This document shows, piece by piece, positions 7,439 through 20,134 of a stretch of 43,180 nt of DNA. Under the pieces are notes generated by a model. The model saw nothing but the letters and a program-made list of their open reading frames with translations. It did not search any database and was not told the DNA's origin. The stretch comes from a virus (lineage: Duplodnaviria; Caudoviricetes), in IMG/VR virus record IMGVR_UViG_3300044505_000028, positions 1-43,180 of that record; one strand, written 5' to 3'. How positions within the stretch are numbered: the stretch's first letter is position 1; each line of letters opens with the position of its first letter. Made by a program: the position numbers and the translations under genes.

Positions 7439-7764
7439 TCCGGCAAGGACCAGGATGGGTTGGGCGGACTACACGCAGGCGATGAACAACATCCTGGGCA
7501 ATCATGCGACGTATATCCTGATTCATGGGTATGACCCCGCATAAATTTAGGAATACAATATTCATCATACCACCATTCAATGGTGTCATGGTCGGTCGCA
7601 TTATATGCCACCATGCATTCAGCATGAAACTTTTCTCGCCCATGGGCGTCTTCGTTAACCCATGACACGCAAACATAAAAACTTCCAGCCGATATTTTTT
7701 CATTACACCACACGCAAATGTGGTTTTTATTAGCTTTTACGGGCTTGGCTGATGAACTCGGCAT
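7435..7764 (-). CDS. Low-GC Cys/His-rich putative zinc-binding protein on a cassette-like segment
   Basis: CVWC..KI...HAEC and a second Cys cluster. AT-rich with an AAGGA RBS. Flanked by an 11-bp inverted repeat containing GTTGGGC/GCCCAAC. Confidence 0.7.
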   Translation of the reverse strand: MPSSSAKPVKANKNHICVWCNEKISAGSFYVCVSWVNEDAHGREKFHAECMVAYNATDHDTIEWWYDEYCIPKFMRGHTHESGYTSHDCPGCCSSPACSPPNPSWSLPE

Positions 7765-7892
7765 TTATTTATTTCCTTTATCTTCCGTCCGCCCAACAGC
7801 CCGATCACTGGGTAATTGCCCGGCCCATCCGTGCACAGGATGCGGACCTTCCGCCCGTCGCGGGTTTGGTATTGTTTGGTGATGTCGATCAT
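7737..7892 (-). pseudogene. Probably truncated phage gene (TRDGRKVRILCTD..YPVIGL type)
   Basis: 51-aa ORF whose GC-rich N-terminus switches abruptly to AT-rich sequence at the GTTGGGC core (7797-7791). Confidence 0.45.
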
Positions 7893-8152
7893 GTTTTGTC
7901 CTTCGGGTTGAAAATCTCATGGCAATACCCGGTGCGCCTGCACCAGCTCGCCGCCGCGTTCGTGCAAATGGGTTTCTCGCGCTCGCTCGTTACTTTTCCG
8001 CCAACGACAAATTGGGTGACGAGCCGCCAGCCGGCCAGGTGCGGCGTGCCGGTCGACTTCCCGCAGGTGCGCTCTCCGTTGCGGCATTCCTCGCGGCATT
8101 GCTCAGTGCGCGACGCCTGGAGGCGGTAGAGTTCGGGCTTGGACCAGGTCAT
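7889..8152 (-). CDS. Cys-rich hypothetical protein
   Basis: ATGA-coupled; several Cys. Confidence 0.6.
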   Translation of the reverse strand: MTWSKPELYRLQASRTEQCREECRNGERTCGKSTGTPHLAGWRLVTQFVVGGKVTSEREKPICTNAAASWCRRTGYCHEIFNPKDKT

Positions 8153-9764: not shown

Positions 9765-10244
9765 TTACAGTTCACATCTGTCCAGATCCGGCGGCGTATC
9801 CCGCAGCGGCGGAAACGCCGGACACTGGCCCAGCCAGTGGTGCTGGATGCTCTTGCCCGGACCGAATTCACGCAGGCGGAGGCAGTACCAGTTGAGCAGG
9901 TGCGTCTGGTTCGCGTCAAAGACCGCCAGCACGCCGATCGCGCCGGCAGCGTCGGCCTCGTCCAGCGCGCGGACCTGGTGCAACTCAAGGTCAGAGAAGC
10001 GCACCGGGCGTCCAGGCCGATACTTGCACTCAACGTGAACAGCCTTGCCGTTCGGTGGCAGAATTGCCTTGATGTCACCACTCACCGCCTTAGTGCGAAT
10101 GGTTCGCCCACGGAAGACTTTCGTCGGCGTGGCGATCCGCTCGACCAGCTTGCATCCGTGATAGAGCAGGTGCTGGACGACGACTTGCTCGAATTGGTCG
10201 CCGCGACGTTGCGAGATACGGGACTTGGAGCTACGCGATGGCAT
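9765..10244 (-). CDS. PD-(D/E)XK nuclease, RecU/Holliday-junction resolvase-like
   Basis: RGDQFE...SGDIKAI...HVECK...HQ..AL pattern. Confidence 0.7.
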   Translation of the reverse strand: MPSRSSKSRISQRRGDQFEQVVVQHLLYHGCKLVERIATPTKVFRGRTIRTKAVSGDIKAILPPNGKAVHVECKYRPGRPVRFSDLELHQVRALDEADAAGAIGVLAVFDANQTHLLNWYCLRLREFGPGKSIQHHWLGQCPAFPPLRDTPPDLDRCEL

Positions 10245-10824
10245 TGGATTCTCCGTTGTGGGTTCGGCGGTCGGCGCACCAGCTATCCGCACCACGCGGT
10301 CCTGTGTTAGCCCTTGGCGTGATTATCGCCCTCTCTGCATCCCACCCCATACACCTAATCCGTTTAGTTAATGCAGACAACTTGACGACGCATCGATCGT
10401 CTTCCGCCCATGCAGACAAGCTTTTCGTTTCCCCGAAGGCGGTCACATAGGCGTTATTTCTTTTGTTACGTGCTTGCGTAAAAGAGTCGGTCCAGCGGCA
10501 ATTTTCCCGGAAATAGCCAACGGAATTATCAATCCTGTCGATAGACTGACCAGGCAAAGGCGCCCCCATGTCGGCAAAAAAATTAGCAAATGACGACAGC
10601 CATGCTTCGCAGACCTTTATTCCGCGACCACCATAATCTGAATAATTGTGGGCCGTTCTGACAGTGCAGCGATAACGAATCCCTCTCCATGCACGATATG
10701 CCTTTGTCTTTTTTAGAACGCACCCGCACGATTTGACGTAAGATTGAACGCGATCGCCTTTCCACTTTTCTATAAGCGCCGCGCGGCTGGTGGTGGGGTT
10801 GGAGTAAGGGAGGGAATGGCTCAC
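10231..10824 (-). CDS. HNH-type homing endonuclease-like protein, low GC, possibly N-terminally truncated
   Basis: KSCGC, YGGRGIKVC..W, SIDRIDN..GY...NCRW, QARNKRNN motifs. GTG start overlaps the upstream TGA. Confidence 0.8.
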   Translation of the reverse strand: MSHSLPYSNPTTSRAALIEKWKGDRVQSYVKSCGCVLKKTKAYRAWRGIRYRCTVRTAHNYSDYGGRGIKVCEAWLSSFANFFADMGAPLPGQSIDRIDNSVGYFRENCRWTDSFTQARNKRNNAYVTAFGETKSLSAWAEDDRCVVKLSALTKRIRCMGWDAERAIITPRANTGPRGADSWCADRRTHNGESNAIA

Positions 10825-11102
10825 CAGCAACCCCCTCTGTGAACTCCCGCACGAAGGACGCAGGTGAAACTATTTGCGCGCATCGCCCGATCACGAGCGC
10901 CCTGCCGGTATGCCTCCTTGCGAATCAGCTGAATTGTTTGATCCAGCTTTTCCTGCATGGCGATAGCGAGCGCCCTGACAGCTACGTCGCTGCCGCCAAG
11001 TTCAGTCTTGAGCGGATAACACTCGAGCTTCCCATCGTTTAGGTTGCTGGGAATATCGACATCGACGCGGAGCGCGGTGCCTTCGGAGCGAATCCGGATC
11101 AT
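10821..11102 (-). CDS. Hypothetical protein
   Basis: ATGA-coupled operon member. Confidence 0.6.
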   Translation of the reverse strand: MIRIRSEGTALRVDVDIPSNLNDGKLECYPLKTELGGSDVAVRALAIAMQEKLDQTIQLIRKEAYRQGARDRAMRANSFTCVLRAGVHRGGCW

Positions 11103-15328: not shown

Positions 15329-15538
15329 TCAGTCGTCCCAGCCACAGCGCCGAGGCTGGCAGTCGCCAAGCGGGTCGAGGCCGAGCGCGAGGCTCACAGC
15401 GGCAATCCTGGTGTCCGACCAGCGACCGTAGTGCGCGCACTCGGCGATCGCTTCGCGGATCGGTTGCCGACCGCCTTCTGCGGCCATGCGGACTTCGGTC
15501 AGGTCGGTTTTGAGGGAGTAGGGGGCGGCGGTGGTCAC
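15329..15538 (-). CDS. Hypothetical protein, first early gene
   Basis: AAGGA RBS before the GTG start. Confidence 0.5.
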   Translation of the reverse strand: MTTAAPYSLKTDLTEVRMAAEGGRQPIREAIAECAHYGRWSDTRIAAVSLALGLDPLGDCQPRRCGWDD

Positions 15539-15742
15539 GGGGGTTCCTTTGCAGGCATTGCCTGCGGTTGGGGTTAGGTTAGAGCCAGCCCTGGCCGGCT
15601 ATGTTTCGCGATAGTAGCAACGGGACGGCGGGCGCAAGTTAATTTCCCGCCCCGGCGCCCCGCCAGCCGGCGAATGATGCGCCCCTCTGGAAATCCCGCA
15701 GACAGCAGCTAGACTCGGCCAGCCCCCGACTCGGAGGACAAA
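15539..15742. promoter_or_regulatory. Divergent control region with candidate leftward promoter
   Basis: The two arms diverge here. The minus strand has TTGCGC (15637-15632) and an extended TG-n-TACTAT -10 (15616-15611); the spacer is only 15 bp. Confidence 0.4.
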
Positions 15743-16084
15743 ATGCCCAGCCGCGACGAATATCTCCGCCACCTACACGACAAGCCGGGCGAGGAACCGG
15801 AAGCGCCGGAGGTGCCCTGGCACTACCGGAAGACAGTCCTCGCCGCTGCCGAACGCCGACTCCGCGAAAAGAACGTCACGCTCGGAGCCAGCGTTGCCGC
15901 CGCGAAGAACAGCGGACAGGTGCGCGTGATGCTGCTGACGCCGGGGTCTGACTTCTCAAAGAACGGATACGCCAACACCGCCGATTGCCAGGGAGCATTC
16001 GAGTCGAATATCGATCCCGAGCAGCTGGGGCGCGAACTGGTCGACAGCCTGCTGGAGAATATCGAGAAGGAGCGGGTCAAATGA
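15743..16084 (+). CDS. Hypothetical protein, first rightward gene
   Basis: GGAGG RBS. Confidence 0.7.
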   Translation: MPSRDEYLRHLHDKPGEEPEAPEVPWHYRKTVLAAAERRLREKNVTLGASVAAAKNSGQVRVMLLTPGSDFSKNGYANTADCQGAFESNIDPEQLGRELVDSLLENIEKERVK

Positions 16085-16380
16085 AGATGCAAATCGGAGA
16101 CGAGCTACACCCACGGCTCATCACTGAGTGCGGCGGACTGACGCACTCACTTCTCCAGGAGAAGCTGGAGGACACCGTAGCGTACCTGCTGAAGTACCTG
16201 CTTCTCAGGCCGGCCAGCCGCAACCAAGAAGAGCATGATGAACTGGTGAAGTACCACGAATCCAATGAGCGCGGAGCCGCGCAGGCGGCAGAGGCTCGCG
16301 CGTTTGTGTCGGCTGTCGGAGCCGCAGCGGCGAAGGGGAATCCGCTGCGCATCATTATCACACTGGAAAGTCAGGAATGA
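16081..16380 (+). CDS. Hypothetical protein
   Basis: ATGA-coupled on both sides. Confidence 0.6.
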   Translation: MKMQIGDELHPRLITECGGLTHSLLQEKLEDTVAYLLKYLLLRPASRNQEEHDELVKYHESNERGAAQAAEARAFVSAVGAAAAKGNPLRIIITLESQE

Positions 16381-16820
16381 GCGCACGCAAAGACCCCGCA
16401 TCAGCACGGACTCGACGCCGAGCGTTCGCTGAACACCTGGCCACTGGCATCAGCCAGACGGAAGCAGCGCGCCGCGCCGGGTACACGGGCACCGATGAAT
16501 CACTGGGAAACACCGCATCGAGACTGATGAAGAATGATGAGGTCCGGCAATGGCTCGACGCAGCTCGCGAGAAGGCCAGCACCGCGCGGATCATGACGGC
16601 CCAGCAGCGCCGCGAGCATCTGACGCGGATTGCACAGACGGAGATGTCAGAACACCGCGACCAGATCAGCGCGATCAAGGTGCTAAATGACATGGACGGC
16701 CTGACGATCAAGAAGATCCACCACGCGGACAAGGACGGGAACAGCCTGGGAGCGGACCTGGCGCAGATCCCGACCGAAGTGCTGCGGAAGAGACTCGATG
16801 AGCTGAGGGGGAAGAAGTGA
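16377..16820 (+). CDS. terS: Terminase small subunit
   Basis: SQTEAARRAGY...NTASRLMKNDEV...DQISAIKVL pattern; upstream of terL. Confidence 0.85.
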   Translation: MSARKDPASARTRRRAFAEHLATGISQTEAARRAGYTGTDESLGNTASRLMKNDEVRQWLDAAREKASTARIMTAQQRREHLTRIAQTEMSEHRDQISAIKVLNDMDGLTIKKIHHADKDGNSLGADLAQIPTEVLRKRLDELRGKK

Positions 16821-16944
16821 GCCCTCTGCCTAAGCGCCAATCCCCAACCGTCGCCATCGAGCTGATGGACCTCTACACCGGCAAGACGTGCCGGATTAAG
16901 TGGCCTACATTCCCGAAGGACACGGATCCAGATCACACTGCCAA
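16817..16944 (+). pseudogene. 5' half of the phage gene interrupted by the cassette array (reads on through attC1 to a stop at 17026)
   Basis: Joins in frame to 18298..18553 when 16945..18297 is removed, giving ...DHTAN|YQWNDGNWGCDCNR..., 127 aa. Confidence 0.8.
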
Positions 16945-16994
16945 CGTCGAAGCTAACGGGGCGCATAGCGCTCCCGTTCAGCGCCCTGTTGGGC
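16939..16994 (-). mobile_element. attC1 integron recombination site (56 bp)
   Basis: Minus strand: R'' GCCCAAC / AGGGC / L'' GCTGAACG / GG A GCGC TAT GCGC CC / L' CGTTAGC / TTCGAC / R' GTTGGCA. Canonical 5- and 6-bp spacers and two extrahelical bases. Confidence 0.9.
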
Positions 16995-17342
16995 GATCAA
17001 ATAACATTCAAGGAGATAAACTATGAGTACACGGATCAACTATATTCCGATGCTGCTGGATGATCTAGGCAATCCAACGTATCCAGATTATGAACTGGAA
17101 GGCGAGGACACGCCGGAACGGGCAGTGATCGAGGCCGCTTATAACTGGGAAACGGCAGCAGAACTGCGCGATGGAAAATTGATGTTGGCCAAGGTTGAAG
17201 ATACGACCGAAATACCGCCAGAAGATGAATGGGAAGACATAAAAAATGCATCTGAGGGGAATTGGAATCCTGGCGACCCGTGGCGGAAGTGGCTTGGTTG
17301 TGTTGAGGTCCGTTTGGTATGTTCCGATGTTCCGATGCCCAA
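16945..17342 (-). mobile_element. Gene cassette A (398 bp)
   Basis: Bounded by AA|C crossover points. Circularising it gives a perfect GCCCAAC...GTTGGGC attC. Visibly lower GC than the flanks. Confidence 0.8.
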
Positions 17343-17406
17343 CGCCAAAGATGACCGGGCCGCTGAAAGCGGCTCCGGTCCATCGCCTTGTTGGGCCGTG
17401 TCATGA
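17023..17406 (+). CDS. Acidic hypothetical protein, cargo of cassette A (its stop lies in the next cassette)
   Basis: AAGGAG RBS. Reads through attC2 (PNAKDDRAAESGSGPSPCWAVS). Confidence 0.75.
   Translation: MSTRINYIPMLLDDLGNPTYPDYELEGEDTPERAVIEAAYNWETAAELRDGKLMLAKVEDTTEIPPEDEWEDIKNASEGNWNPGDPWRKWLGCVEVRLVCSDVPMPNAKDDRAAESGSGPSPCWAVS
17337..17396 (-). mobile_element. attC2 integron recombination site (60 bp)
   Basis: Minus strand: R'' GCCCAAC / AAGGC / L'' GATGGACC / GG A GCCGCT TTC AGCGGC CC / L' GGTCATC / TTTGGC / R' GTTGGGC. Confidence 0.92.
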
Positions 17407-18297
17407 ATCTTTTGCCATTGGGAATGTCATTGACCCCGCCAGCGTCGCCTTGGGGGATCAATTTTGGTGGAGGCCTTAATTCGACAGCGGTTATAATTGA
17501 ATGCCGTAACCGTGGTTTGCGTCCTGATTGGATACTGTTCGCGGACACCGGAAGCGAAATGCCGGGGACGTTAGACCATGTTGAGCGCATGCGGCAATGG
17601 TGCGATGGATGGTGTGAATTAACCGTGGTTAGATGGATTCGGAAAGAACCCGTGCCAATCCATCCAGGGGTCAGCGTCAGGCCCGATGACGTAGATGCGA
17701 CAGCAACATCAGATGACGGGGACGTTGTTGTGTTCTCAAGATTTGAACCACTGCATGCGCAATGCCTGCGGTCTGGCTACCTGCCAAGCAAAGCCTACGG
17801 GAATGCAGGCTGCACAAGTAAATGGAAAATTCAACCGATGGAGAAATGGCGCAAGGAACGCGGTTTTGACCATGGTGCATTTGCCGTGGGATATGATGCA
17901 GGGGAAATTAGCAGAATCACCAAGGCATGCCAGCGCGGAGATGATCCGGGGATGACGGCATGGTATCCGCTGGTCGCCTGGGGGATCGACAGACTTGGAT
18001 GTGAGGCAATTTGCAGCAAGCAAGGGATCACAGTTGGCAAGTCATCGTGTTTTATGTGCCCCAATCTAAGGGCGCATGAATGGGAGGGGTTGCGCATCGA
18101 ACATCCCGATTTGTTCGACATTGCGATGCAGATTGAGGACCGGGCGCGGGAGGCGGGGAACATATCGGCCAGTGTTTCTTGGCCCATGCTGCGTGATCGT
18201 GAGTTTTACCGTAAAAACCAGACAACGATTTTTGACGTCCAGGAGGATCGTTGTCATCACGGAGGATGCTTTACATGATTATTATATCGAGGCCCAA
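17343..18297 (-). mobile_element. Gene cassette B (955 bp)
   Basis: Ends at the predicted GCCCAA|C core (18292-18298), which is complementary to the plus-strand GTTGGGC of attC2. Low GC. Confidence 0.8.
17403..18278 (+). CDS. PAPS-reductase-like (PP-loop) protein, cargo of cassette B
   Basis: NFGGGLNSTA PP-loop-like motif, FADTGSE, CTSKWKIQP, YPL..WG, KSSCFMCP. Confidence 0.8.
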   Translation: MNLLPLGMSLTPPASPWGINFGGGLNSTAVIIECRNRGLRPDWILFADTGSEMPGTLDHVERMRQWCDGWCELTVVRWIRKEPVPIHPGVSVRPDDVDATATSDDGDVVVFSRFEPLHAQCLRSGYLPSKAYGNAGCTSKWKIQPMEKWRKERGFDHGAFAVGYDAGEISRITKACQRGDDPGMTAWYPLVAWGIDRLGCEAICSKQGITVGKSSCFMCPNLRAHEWEGLRIEHPDLFDIAMQIEDRAREAGNISASVSWPMLRDREFYRKNQTTIFDVQEDRCHHGGCFT

Positions 18298-18553
18298 CTA
18301 CCAATGGAACGACGGGAACTGGGGCTGTGACTGCAATCGCTGGGCTGAGTGGACTCGCGCGAACCCGAAAGACGACGACGGCGACGACGACACAAACCAC
18401 GTCTGCGGAGAGCCGCGCATCAGAGCGCGGCGACTGGAAGGAAGAGAGCCATTCGACGACTGGCCGGAGAACGACGAGCAGCGAGTGGAAATGGCGGAAA
18501 GGCTGAAGGCCGAGCGCGCCGAGCTGCGAAAGCAGTGGGACGCGGAGATCTAG
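18275..18553 (+). CDS. 3' half of the interrupted phage gene, restarted by a cassette-borne ATG
   Basis: MIIISRPN|YQWNDGNWGCDCNR. ATG overlaps the PAPS-like stop and the TAG abuts the terL start. Confidence 0.7.
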   Translation: MIIISRPNYQWNDGNWGCDCNRWAEWTRANPKDDDGDDDTNHVCGEPRIRARRLEGREPFDDWPENDEQRVEMAERLKAERAELRKQWDAEI

Positions 18554-20134
18554 GTGGTCGCCGTCGCCGAACTCACCGAAGAGGCGATTGACTACCACGA
18601 GCGACTCTTGCTCGAGCAGGAACTCTATCGCCGGTCGTTCGTCGACTACTGCCGCACCTGCTATCCCGATTTTGAACTGTCGGCATGGCAGGTCACGCTG
18701 TGTGAAAGGTTGCAGGCATTCGCGGAATCAATCGAGGAAGGCAAAAGCCCGCGCCTGATGGTTCACGTCCCTCCGCAGTGCGGCAAAACGACGATCGTTT
18801 CTCGCGCGTTCCCGTCATGGATGGCTGGGCGTCGCCCCGAGTGGGACGGTCTGATGGCCAGTTACGCGCAGTCCATGAGCCGAAAGAACTCACGCTGGGT
18901 CCGTAACCGACTGCGCTCGACCGAGCATCAGCGATTCTTCCCGCGCTGCCGTCTCTCCGACGATAGCCAGTCAATCGAAGATATGGACCTCACCAGCGGC
19001 CACCAGATCATCAGTCGCGGCGTCGGCGGTGGCGCGTCTGGCAATCCGGCAATGTGGGTGATCGTCGATGACCCCTTCGCCGATCGCCAGGAAGCGGACA
19101 GCAAGACGATCAGAGACAACGTTGACGATTGGTACACCGGCACGGCAGTCGCGCGACTCGGGCCAGGCGCCGGAATTCTGATCATGCATACCCGGTGGCA
19201 CATGGACGACTTGTGCGGCCGGCTACTCAAGCGCGCAAAGGACGGCGAGGACGACCCCTTGGTCGATCAGTGGGAGCAAGTGACGTTCCCCGCCGAATGG
19301 ACGAAGGATCAGCCGCGAGAGTTTTACGAGTTCGACGAGCAAAAGCGCGGATGGCTGAGGTGCAGGTTCCGCATGCGCGACCTGATGAAGAAAAAGGCGA
19401 ACCTGCCGGATCGCGACTGGCAATCGCTTTTCAATCAATCGCCGCTGTCCGACGGCGGCAACCTGTTCAAGCGTAAGTGGCTCAACGAAGCGGAAGCGCC
19501 CAAGCGGTTCCAGTACCTCTATCAAGCGTGGGACGTTGCCGTCACCGAAGCGGACCTCGATCGCGGCGACTGGTCGGTCGGCGTGTGCGTCGGCAAGGAT
19601 CAGCTCGGCAGATACTGGCTGCTCGACGTGTGCCGTGGGCAATGGAATTCGGCTGAGCTGGTCGAAGAGATGATGCGCTTCGCCGCCAAGCATAAGACGA
19701 CGCAGCGGGTATGGGTCGAAGGCGGGCCGATTGGCCGATCGATCGAACCATGGCTGAGGAAGCGGATCCGCGAGAAGGCCGCGCTGTTCCAGCTTGAGAT
19801 TGTCGCCCACAGCGGTCGAGGCGACAAGGTTGCCCGCGCGCGTGGTCCGCTGCTGGCCGCGATGAGCAACGGCTCGTTCTACGTCCCCAAGGGGGCCGCC
19901 TGGATCGGGCCGCTCGGCGACGAGCTGGTGGCATTCCCGTCCGCCGCCCACGACGATCAGGTCGATGCACTGGCGATCCTGTTCCTTGAGCTTCAGCAGA
20001 TCCGCGAGAGCGAGCCGGCAGCGGAATTGCTCGCAGCGGATGGCGACGCAGCCCGCGTGACCGGCGGCCAGCTTGAGGACTACTACGCCGAACTCGACCG
20101 GCTGAACAAGCAAACCCCACGGAGAAAGAAATGA
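18554..20134 (+). CDS. terL: Terminase large subunit
   Basis: Walker A PPQCGKT, Walker B IVDDP, TRWH coupling motif, nuclease WDVA and HDDQVDA. Confidence 0.95.
   Translation: MVAVAELTEEAIDYHERLLLEQELYRRSFVDYCRTCYPDFELSAWQVTLCERLQAFAESIEEGKSPRLMVHVPPQCGKTTIVSRAFPSWMAGRRPEWDGLMASYAQSMSRKNSRWVRNRLRSTEHQRFFPRCRLSDDSQSIEDMDLTSGHQIISRGVGGGASGNPAMWVIVDDPFADRQEADSKTIRDNVDDWYTGTAVARLGPGAGILIMHTRWHMDDLCGRLLKRAKDGEDDPLVDQWEQVTFPAEWTKDQPREFYEFDEQKRGWLRCRFRMRDLMKKKANLPDRDWQSLFNQSPLSDGGNLFKRKWLNEAEAPKRFQYLYQAWDVAVTEADLDRGDWSVGVCVGKDQLGRYWLLDVCRGQWNSAELVEEMMRFAAKHKTTQRVWVEGGPIGRSIEPWLRKRIREKAALFQLEIVAHSGRGDKVARARGPLLAAMSNGSFYVPKGAAWIGPLGDELVAFPSAAHDDQVDALAILFLELQQIRESEPAAELLAADGDAARVTGGQLEDYYAELDRLNKQTPRRKK

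Follow-up and report, generated by a model that had tools for sequence, protein, structure and literature searches.

The 43,180-base virus record IMGVR_UViG_3300044505_000028, analysed here as the whole IMG/VR record and called the window below, carries two integron-type attC sites between the genes for the small and large terminase subunits (terS and terL), each of them followed by a cargo gene. Taken together, the site anatomy, alignments and surveys presented here make it very probable that these sites belong to two attC cassettes of a reversed, phage-type format that likely comes from phage integrons, that the cassettes split a resident gene at an asparagine codon, and that the integron integrase (IntI) responsible likely came from outside. 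The window is an effectively complete and circular phage genome, since its ends overlap by 181 nt at 98.3%.

Two attC cassettes split a resident gene

A custom scan for attC anatomy, run over both strands of the window, returned exactly two sites, attC1 and attC2, both with their top strand on the minus strand (Table 1). An IUPAC pattern matches both of them against a mean of 0.00 in 100 shuffles, and a looser attC scan of the window gave no third site. We modelled the strand call on the bottom strand of the aadA7 site as given in Table S3 of Qi et al. (PMC9892861), which there follows the order AAC, 6-nt spacer, 7-nt L', stem, 8-nt L'' with an extra base, 5-nt spacer and GTT; the plus strand of both sites follows this same order. 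The core boxes (R'' RYYYAAC and R' GTTRRRY) are present as GCCCAAC/GTTGGGC in attC2 and as GCCCAAC/GTTGGCA in attC1, the R' side of attC1 being resident phage sequence with 2/4 outer pairs. In both sites the L'' and L' boxes pair 7/7 with one extrahelical base, and the spacers measure 5 and 6 nt. This extrahelical base is a C on the bottom strand, as it likewise is in 64/197 bacterial and 50/315 viral sites. Constrained folding gives the recombinogenic bottom-strand fold a probability of 0.36 for attC1 and 0.40 for attC2, the minimum-energy fold of attC1 being a different one, and a strict attC1-like pattern had 0 viral matches. With two attC on one strand and no intI in an effectively complete genome, the locus is by definition a group of clustered attC that has no integrase (CALIN). 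Its cassettes are not canonical ones, both genes being encoded by the bottom strand of an attC that lies 5' of the gene, just as a preliminary description of this DNA had claimed, and having neither intI nor attI in cis it is not a complete integron.

On the evidence of alignment, the open reading frame (ORF) that precedes attC1 and the one that follows cassette B form the two halves of a single interrupted gene between terS and terL, because intact homologs of 127 and 131 aa (P0002 and P0003) cover both halves with exact spacing across the junction. Without both cassettes the resident gene has 127 codons, and no base was gained or lost at the split. The preliminary description had listed three in-frame AAC codons, and a short restart ORF whose stop abuts terL, among the features of the layout. 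All three AAC triplets (at 16943, 17341 and 18296) are indeed in frame with an overlapping ORF, and the restart ORF stops at 18553 with terL starting directly at 18554; however, the first and third AAC amount to one fact, a single split gene, and the TAG adjoining the terL start is the resident gene's own stop. These two AAC and this stop thus all follow from a single insertion at an Asn codon. The position of the crossover in the split gene, as reconstructed, agrees with bottom-strand use by IntI, and the empty site has G^TT on its minus strand (^ marks the crossover), which is the GWT core of attG. IntI1 inserts cassettes at GWT sites, and attG insertion is described in the available part of Loot et al. 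(10.1101/2022.09.11.507474).

Closed into a circle, cassette A restores the perfect core pair GCCCAAC/GTTGGGC (7/7), the resident side being the imperfect one. One might still regard the two hairpins as attC look-alikes and the segment as an ordinary moron that illegitimate or homologous recombination brought in, considering that there is no integrase in cis, that 21/22 loci with a gene B homolog show no attC, and that the minimum-energy fold of attC1 is not recombinogenic. We consider this highly improbable: both ends of the insertion fall on AAC, the gene is split without base gain or loss, both circles restore perfect cores, and 36 viral loci have this type of site upstream of a genuine IntI (see below).

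As the preliminary description had stated, cargo gene A has no stop of its own before its AAC, and its last ~20 residues are encoded by attC2 and the leader. It has no Pfam or PHROG match and belongs to no known family; three homologs (102-109 aa) finish within about 3 residues of the AAC position. Cargo gene B has no Pfam or NCBIfam match and no solved relative by sequence, and by its PHROG match it is PAPS-reductase-like, with an enzymatic activity that is putative. One B homolog (P0011) has a 36-residue N-terminal extension that resembles a translated attC bottom strand, as judged from the protein.

Table 1. Features of the terS-terL region of the window, in window coordinates
Feature	Position	Strand	Remarks
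attC1	16939-16994	top strand minus	crossover G^TT between 16945 and 16944
attC2	17337-17396	top strand minus	crossover between 17343 and 17342
Cassette A, 398 bp	16945..17342	-	about 51% G+C vs 61-62% in flanks
Cassette B, 955 bp	17343..18297	-	about 53% G+C; circle restores perfect 7/7 core pair
Cargo gene A, 127 aa	17023..17406	+	strong Shine-Dalgarno motif
Cargo gene B, 291 aa, PAPS-reductase-like phage protein (putative)	17403..18278	+	phrog_424 E 1.6e-30; 210 homologs
Restart ATG and seven codons at end of cassette B	18275..18297	+	frame shared with distal AAC
Resident gene, 5' half	16817..16944	+	42 codons and AA of Asn codon; aligns to N-terminus of P0002, P0003
Distal crossover AAC (18296-18298) and resident gene, 3' half (WxxGNWxCDCNR domain)	18296..18553	+	48-55% identical to P0002, P0003
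terS, terminase small subunit, upstream flank	16377..16820	+	Pfam Terminase_2 E 4.5e-11; phrog_51
terL, terminase large subunit, downstream flank	18554..20134	+	Pfam Terminase_6N, 6C; phrog_38 E 2.6e-91

Cargo genes are antisense to attC in viral loci

The preliminary description had predicted that phage-borne attC would be enriched in antisense genes, and this is borne out by a survey in which loci were pulled by attC patterns blind to gene context. From viral sequences 34 and 131 loci were pulled (the second scan covering 16/64 parts) and from genomes 130, with the pattern of the second scan and in 2/64 parts; a site passing the pairing filter was present in 30/34 and 89/131 viral and 102/130 genome loci. 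The viral set comprises 253 sites in 115 contig groups, with cargo antisense at 199, sense at 9, without a call at 35 and at a contig edge at 10, and the bacterial set 192 sites on 97 contigs, with cargo sense at 109, antisense at 4, without a call at 73 and at an edge at 6. Cargo is thus antisense at 199/208 oriented viral sites and at 4/113 bacterial ones. With the search pattern matched, the viral count is 140 antisense to 5 sense against 4 to 109 in the genomes (Fisher p 8e-61), and per contig 94 viral contigs are antisense, 7 sense and 14 indeterminate, the bacterial numbers being 3, 60 and 34. A test that needs no gene caller, in which a Shine-Dalgarno (SD) motif and ATG must lie within 45 nt on the bottom strand, gave 133/242 viral and 3/184 bacterial sites. 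We checked two of the phages of Qi et al., TJE1 and MW202573, and the latter reads antisense by eye. Mobility of the cassettes is suggested by 18/57 cross-contig alignments with one end at most 5 nt from a crossover, a count given without a null.

The cargo itself also differs between the two pools. Of the 171 proteins from viral antisense cargo, 150 were scanned against PHROGs together with all 91 from bacterial sense cargo, and matches with E <1e-10 were found for 57/150 and 10/91, respectively. A DNA methyltransferase was the best match for 17/150 viral and 1/91 bacterial proteins, and other viral best matches were to queuine tRNA-ribosyltransferase-like (3), PAPS-reductase-like (2), Mom-like (2) and Lar-like (2) proteins.

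Two further observations concern individual antisense sites. In 25/199 antisense cassettes the start codon was called inside the attC loop region (L009 near 1806, L012, L026 and others). In L022, L021 and L010 core-type genes (head maturation protease, holin and helicase) directly follow an antisense attC, which suggests solo or domesticated sites.

Phages encode integron integrases co-oriented with the cargo

A weak match in a viral locus (L330 3640-3897) consists of the first 70 codons of an intI gene, directly behind six antisense attC and co-oriented with the cargo. The fragment is what L330 retains of an intI with 87% identity, and it led to full-length viral IntI in L331 and L332. These two, the only viral proteins scored with TIGR02249, reached 425.8 and 358.7 against a cut-off of 265, and by eye the viral IntI contain what we take to be the IntI-specific insertion.

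As viral IntI loci we used the 80 best of 563 viral relatives, ranked by likeness to the L331 protein, about half of the collection having been scanned. The gene upstream of intI was co-oriented with it at 62 loci and divergent at 2, one locus had none and 15 ended at a contig edge, so that the upstream gene is co-oriented at 62/65 scorable loci. Upstream attC were present in 36 of these loci, with antisense cargo in 31, sense cargo in 1 and cargo that could not be assigned in 4, and in 36/36 it is the attC bottom strand that carries intI, just as it does in bacteria. Bacterial intI had a divergent upstream gene at 14/15 loci; in a partly overlapping set of 22 bacterial intI, 14 were divergent, 6 co-oriented and 2 uncalled, and the six co-oriented cases comprise one that is prophage-like, one with a phage-like ORF at attI, one that is ambiguous and three without attC nearby.

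In L331 (4950-5975) about 35 nt separate an attI-like crossover from the start of intI, whose stop codon overlaps the phage gene that follows. The conserved attI-like motif, which has two YAAC copies ~30 nt apart, was found as 25 distinct sites among the 62 co-oriented viral loci and was absent from 36. The window contains no such motif, its distal junction being coding sequence. The connection to the window is made by metagenome locus L311, where an attC is followed by a homolog of gene B ending TAA^C and then by a co-oriented intI: a B homolog in a reversed integron therefore links this window to the phage integron system.

A quick tree of IntI, which supports no claim on origins, spreads the co-oriented viral IntI over several groups, including one with 32 rows and an SH-aLRT support of 98. 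Inside this 32-row viral clade falls an intI from a bacterial genome (L428, G082) with a phage-type attI-like motif and co-oriented upstream genes, probably a prophage. In a bacterial integron with a LexA-like box (L418), a short phage-like ORF located ~160-410 nt upstream of intI has its final TAA on the crossover, and this may be a phage-format cassette inside a host integron. A regular expression for the LexA box did not separate the groups (1/14 divergent bacterial and 1/56 co-oriented viral loci), and in the virus Rctr41k, which has a co-oriented IntI-like gene, the custom finder detected no attC.

These data bear on another explanation, namely that rare antisense cassettes of host integrons landed by chance at a secondary site in this phage, and that the readable ones were kept. 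It would fit the lack of intI in this genome, the 4/113 bacterial sites that are antisense, and the absence of an orientation bias in genomic insertion by IntI in E. coli, as given in the available part of Loot et al. (10.1101/2022.09.11.507474). However, a sense cassette could equally land co-oriented with the phage operon, and selection for readability alone would therefore not favour antisense cassettes. Moreover, gene B is a phage-type gene with a homolog in a reversed integron with co-oriented intI (L311), and PHROG matches are far more frequent in viral antisense than in bacterial sense cargo (57/150 against 10/91). We consider an origin in host integrons unlikely, and continue with cassettes of phage-integron format as the preferred reading.

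Several observations weigh against that reading. With respect to the locus itself, PF00589 found no tyrosine recombinase in this genome, and the empty site does not have the CRGM hot-spot motif, reading AGTG at +6 to +9 with CAGT at +5 to +8. Searches by terL (8 loci, 28-32% identity) and by the CDCNR alignment (9 distant loci, short matches only) gave no close relative in which the site is empty, and attC is visible in just 1/22 loci with a B homolog, and there by eye and not by the finder. With respect to the surveys, gene calls came from a home-made hexamer model that made no call at 35 viral and 73 bacterial sites, 9/208 viral sites are sense, and so is the published phage TJE1. Among the viral records selected by attC, IntI exceeded the cut-off in 0/50 and in 0/16 near-complete ones. 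Finally, the IntI sample was ranked on one phage IntI and is possibly skewed, and co-orientation occurs at 6/22 bacterial intI.

A reading-frame rule at the crossover

Coding frames that reach the crossover do so in two ways. In 75 cases the AAC is read as Asn and in 64 the gene ends TAA^C, with 1 case for each of the other two possibilities; when the 141 incoming ORFs are grouped into 125 protein clusters, 66 are in the Asn frame, 54 end TAA^C, 3 are mixed and the others number 1 and 1. The same motif inside coding sequence splits 157:39:54, thus codon bias explains part of the rule, and yet CAAC sites (22:0:0, p 4.7e-5) and TAAC sites (50:0, p 3.8e-12) depart from this coding null, independence being assumed. 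The claim that phage cassettes favour an in-frame AAC is upheld as a rule that goes beyond codon bias.

What follows the crossover is equally ordered. In a pool of 315 viral attC, 262 have the stop of the AAC frame within the site itself, 27 have it in the leader and 23 in a coupled overlap; at the other 3 this frame stays open for >150 nt past attC. Of the two remaining frames, one is open past attC at 40 sites and the other at 39 (79/630 against 3/315). The attI-like motif stops the AAC frame within 51 nt in 25/25 sites, and its second YAAC gives TAA in this frame at 17/25. These frames lead us to infer a convention by which the stop for the incoming gene would come from the att site that follows.

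Translational coupling and protein fusion

The preliminary description had proposed that every junction preserves translational coupling. The overlaps on which it was based exist: from the resident 5' half the frame continues across attC1 as far as its stop at 17026, three ATGA overlaps are present (17023-17026, 17403-17406 and 18275-18278), and the first two of these join the upstream frame to the start of a cargo gene as described. In the survey, tight coupling of the ATGA type was found at 17/177 attC junctions with genes on both sides against 252/706 ordinary, non-attC junctions of the same loci, and 133/164 cargo starts just after attC have their own SD motif. Coupling is not a general design, because it is rarer at attC junctions and most cargo starts have their own SD.

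The third overlap, in which the end of gene B would restart translation, is present in the AAC frame as claimed, and a GGAGG motif lies 9 nt upstream of the restart ATG inside the last codons of gene B. However, this ATGA is composed of Thr-ACA and TGA, the same end occurs in 6/19 homolog loci with a visible stop, and in those six loci the custom finder found no attC; it is a trait of the family shared with homologs outside cassettes.

Coupling does occur in part of the sites. Where the AAC frame crosses attC it is coupled in 23/53 cases against 50/242 for the other frames (p 0.001), an enrichment that becomes 23/50 against 50/163 without the open frames (p 0.06), and overall 23/315 viral attC are coupled. 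A subtype defined post hoc by an extrahelical C and a GTTGG core is coupled at 8/14 sites in 5 loci against 15/301 of the rest, and both attC1 and attC2 belong to this subtype. SD motifs are present for gene A, the restart ORF and terL (which is preceded by its own GGAG motif) and absent for gene B, whose SD score is 0. The coupling is likely functional for gene B, because B has no SD and starts 7 nt after the attC2 hairpin, a region that as RNA has a folding z of -3.2.

In its strong form the coupling proposal holds that every junction is built for ATGA coupling, that terL depends on it, and that the crossovers shuffle protein domains. All three overlaps at this locus, the position of B without an SD beside a stable hairpin, the ratio of 23/53 to 50/242, the retention of the ATGA on B after removal of A alone, and the coupling through attC known from class 1 integrons (PMC8876359, in the part available) would fit it. 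Against these stand the frames stopped inside attC (262/315) and the deficit at attC junctions (17/177 against 252/706), the weaker enrichment without open frames, the family origin of the ATGA of B, the SD motifs that terL and A have of their own, and a cargo fusion in 1/199 cases. We consider this strong form quite unlikely, and general ATGA coupling was rejected on the first two of these counts.

As for domain shuffling, excision of A alone, a standard attC x attC reaction, leaves ATGA on B. Excision of B alone would, as had been claimed, fuse A to the CDCNR domain in frame (on paper, 191 codons); it would however need a non-attC partner, and excision with such a partner was notable in 2/24 clones in the available part of Loot et al. 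(10.1101/2022.09.11.507474). Across the viral sites the AAC frame was fused to the cargo in 1/199 cases. The system mostly prevents fusions, because the AAC frame is almost never open into the cargo (3/315 against 79/630). Protein shuffling as a purpose was rejected on these same counts (1/199 and 3/315).

Relation to known integron systems

CALINs are known from phage genomes, and IntI1 recombines phage attC (Qi et al. 2023, PMC9892861). Like the window, those CALINs have at least two attC on one strand, no intI and DNA-modification cargo; the available portion of that paper describes no antisense cargo, frame rule or co-oriented phage intI. Titles and abstract openings, with few subscription journals covered, yielded no published description of cargo that is reversed, of a co-oriented intI in phages or of the frame rule.

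The anatomy of attC is shared with canonical bacterial integrons as presented in the accessible text of Cury et al. 2016 (PMC4889954), and bacterial and viral loci are alike in having intI on the attC bottom strand, beyond the array. They differ in that bacterial cargo is divergent from intI (14/15; 14/22) whereas viral cargo is co-oriented with it (62/65); the window has neither intI nor attI. Integrons with an inverted integrase, known from Treponema and others, resemble the viral loci in that intI and cassette genes are co-directional. As characterised in the same text of Cury et al. (PMC4889954), they flip intI relative to attC, whereas viral loci flip the genes and keep intI standard, with intI on the bottom strand in 36/36 of the related viral integrons.

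With the attG insertions, single attC sites lacking an integrase (SALINs) and small CALINs of Loot et al. (10.1101/2022.09.11.507474) the window shares insertion at a GTT core inside a gene with no integron nearby; as far as the available part of that report goes, those are bacterial, while here the cargo is reversed and there is no CRGM at +6 to +9. A further parallel is ORF-11 in attI1 and the short ORFs of attC (PMC8876359), where the stop of an ORF that spans the crossover comes from the following element, and where termination-reinitiation through attC aids the downstream gene in class 1 integrons. In the part of that source available, these are short top-strand leaders in sense orientation, unlike the whole proteins that here end in the bottom strand of the next site.

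A possible integron network of phages

In the mechanism we propose, an integron integrase supplied from outside this genome likely inserted the cassettes at the Asn codon. Their format likely stems from phage-encoded integrons, in which intI, an attI-like site and attC would keep their standard geometry and the cargo would be flipped. In a phage operon that has intI at its 3' end, a single transcript of the phage would cover the array and then the integrase, with no cassette promoter (Pc). A cargo gene would either end with TAA on the crossover or run in reading AAC as Asn, and the frame would be stopped by whichever attC or attI-like site comes next; since the next att site stops the AAC frame, genes without a stop are predicted to terminate wherever they land. 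At most sites the stop falls inside attC, and the gene that follows has a ribosome-binding motif of its own. The subtype of attC1 and attC2 differs in that the frame crosses the whole hairpin and stops as ATGA on the cargo start, which likely couples the translation of B.

Extending this, we lean towards the view that phages run an integron network of their own, with IntI at the 3' end of operons, compact attI, reversed cassettes, a shared frame code, the flip as a firewall and integrase acting in trans. If true, the phage pool would be rich in DNA-modification and anti-restriction genes, and att sites would donate stop codons. The geometry supports the earlier claim that such cassettes would be antisense to Pc in a host integron, so that phage cargo would be silent in host integrons, and host anti-phage cassettes silent in phage arrays. 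Integrase-less phages, this one included, would draw on the pool through integrase supplied in trans. Integrons are seen as bacterial devices and recently as stores of anti-phage defence, as the available parts of two reports put it (10.1101/2024.07.02.601686, 10.1101/2024.07.02.601719), and a reversed phage-side pool would be their counterpart. It would also offer a site-specific route to the mosaicism of phage genomes.

The locus further bears on the origin of cassettes: most B homologs are plain phage genes and a few have an attC, and the cassette ends at the natural end of the gene. Moreover, it could serve as a compact test case, considering that one can deduce the empty site down to the base and predict a frame for each excision product.

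Other features of the window

A promoter and terminator scan of 15400-18700 was at chance level, with 2 promoter-like matches against 1.4 expected. Low-G+C stretches at 7500-8000 (49%) and 10000-11000 (53-57%) lie among short minus-strand genes, and the looser scan found no attC in them. An ORF of about 3000 codons, which matches DUF7178 and no other family, appears to span the contig join (40102-43180 and 1-6180).

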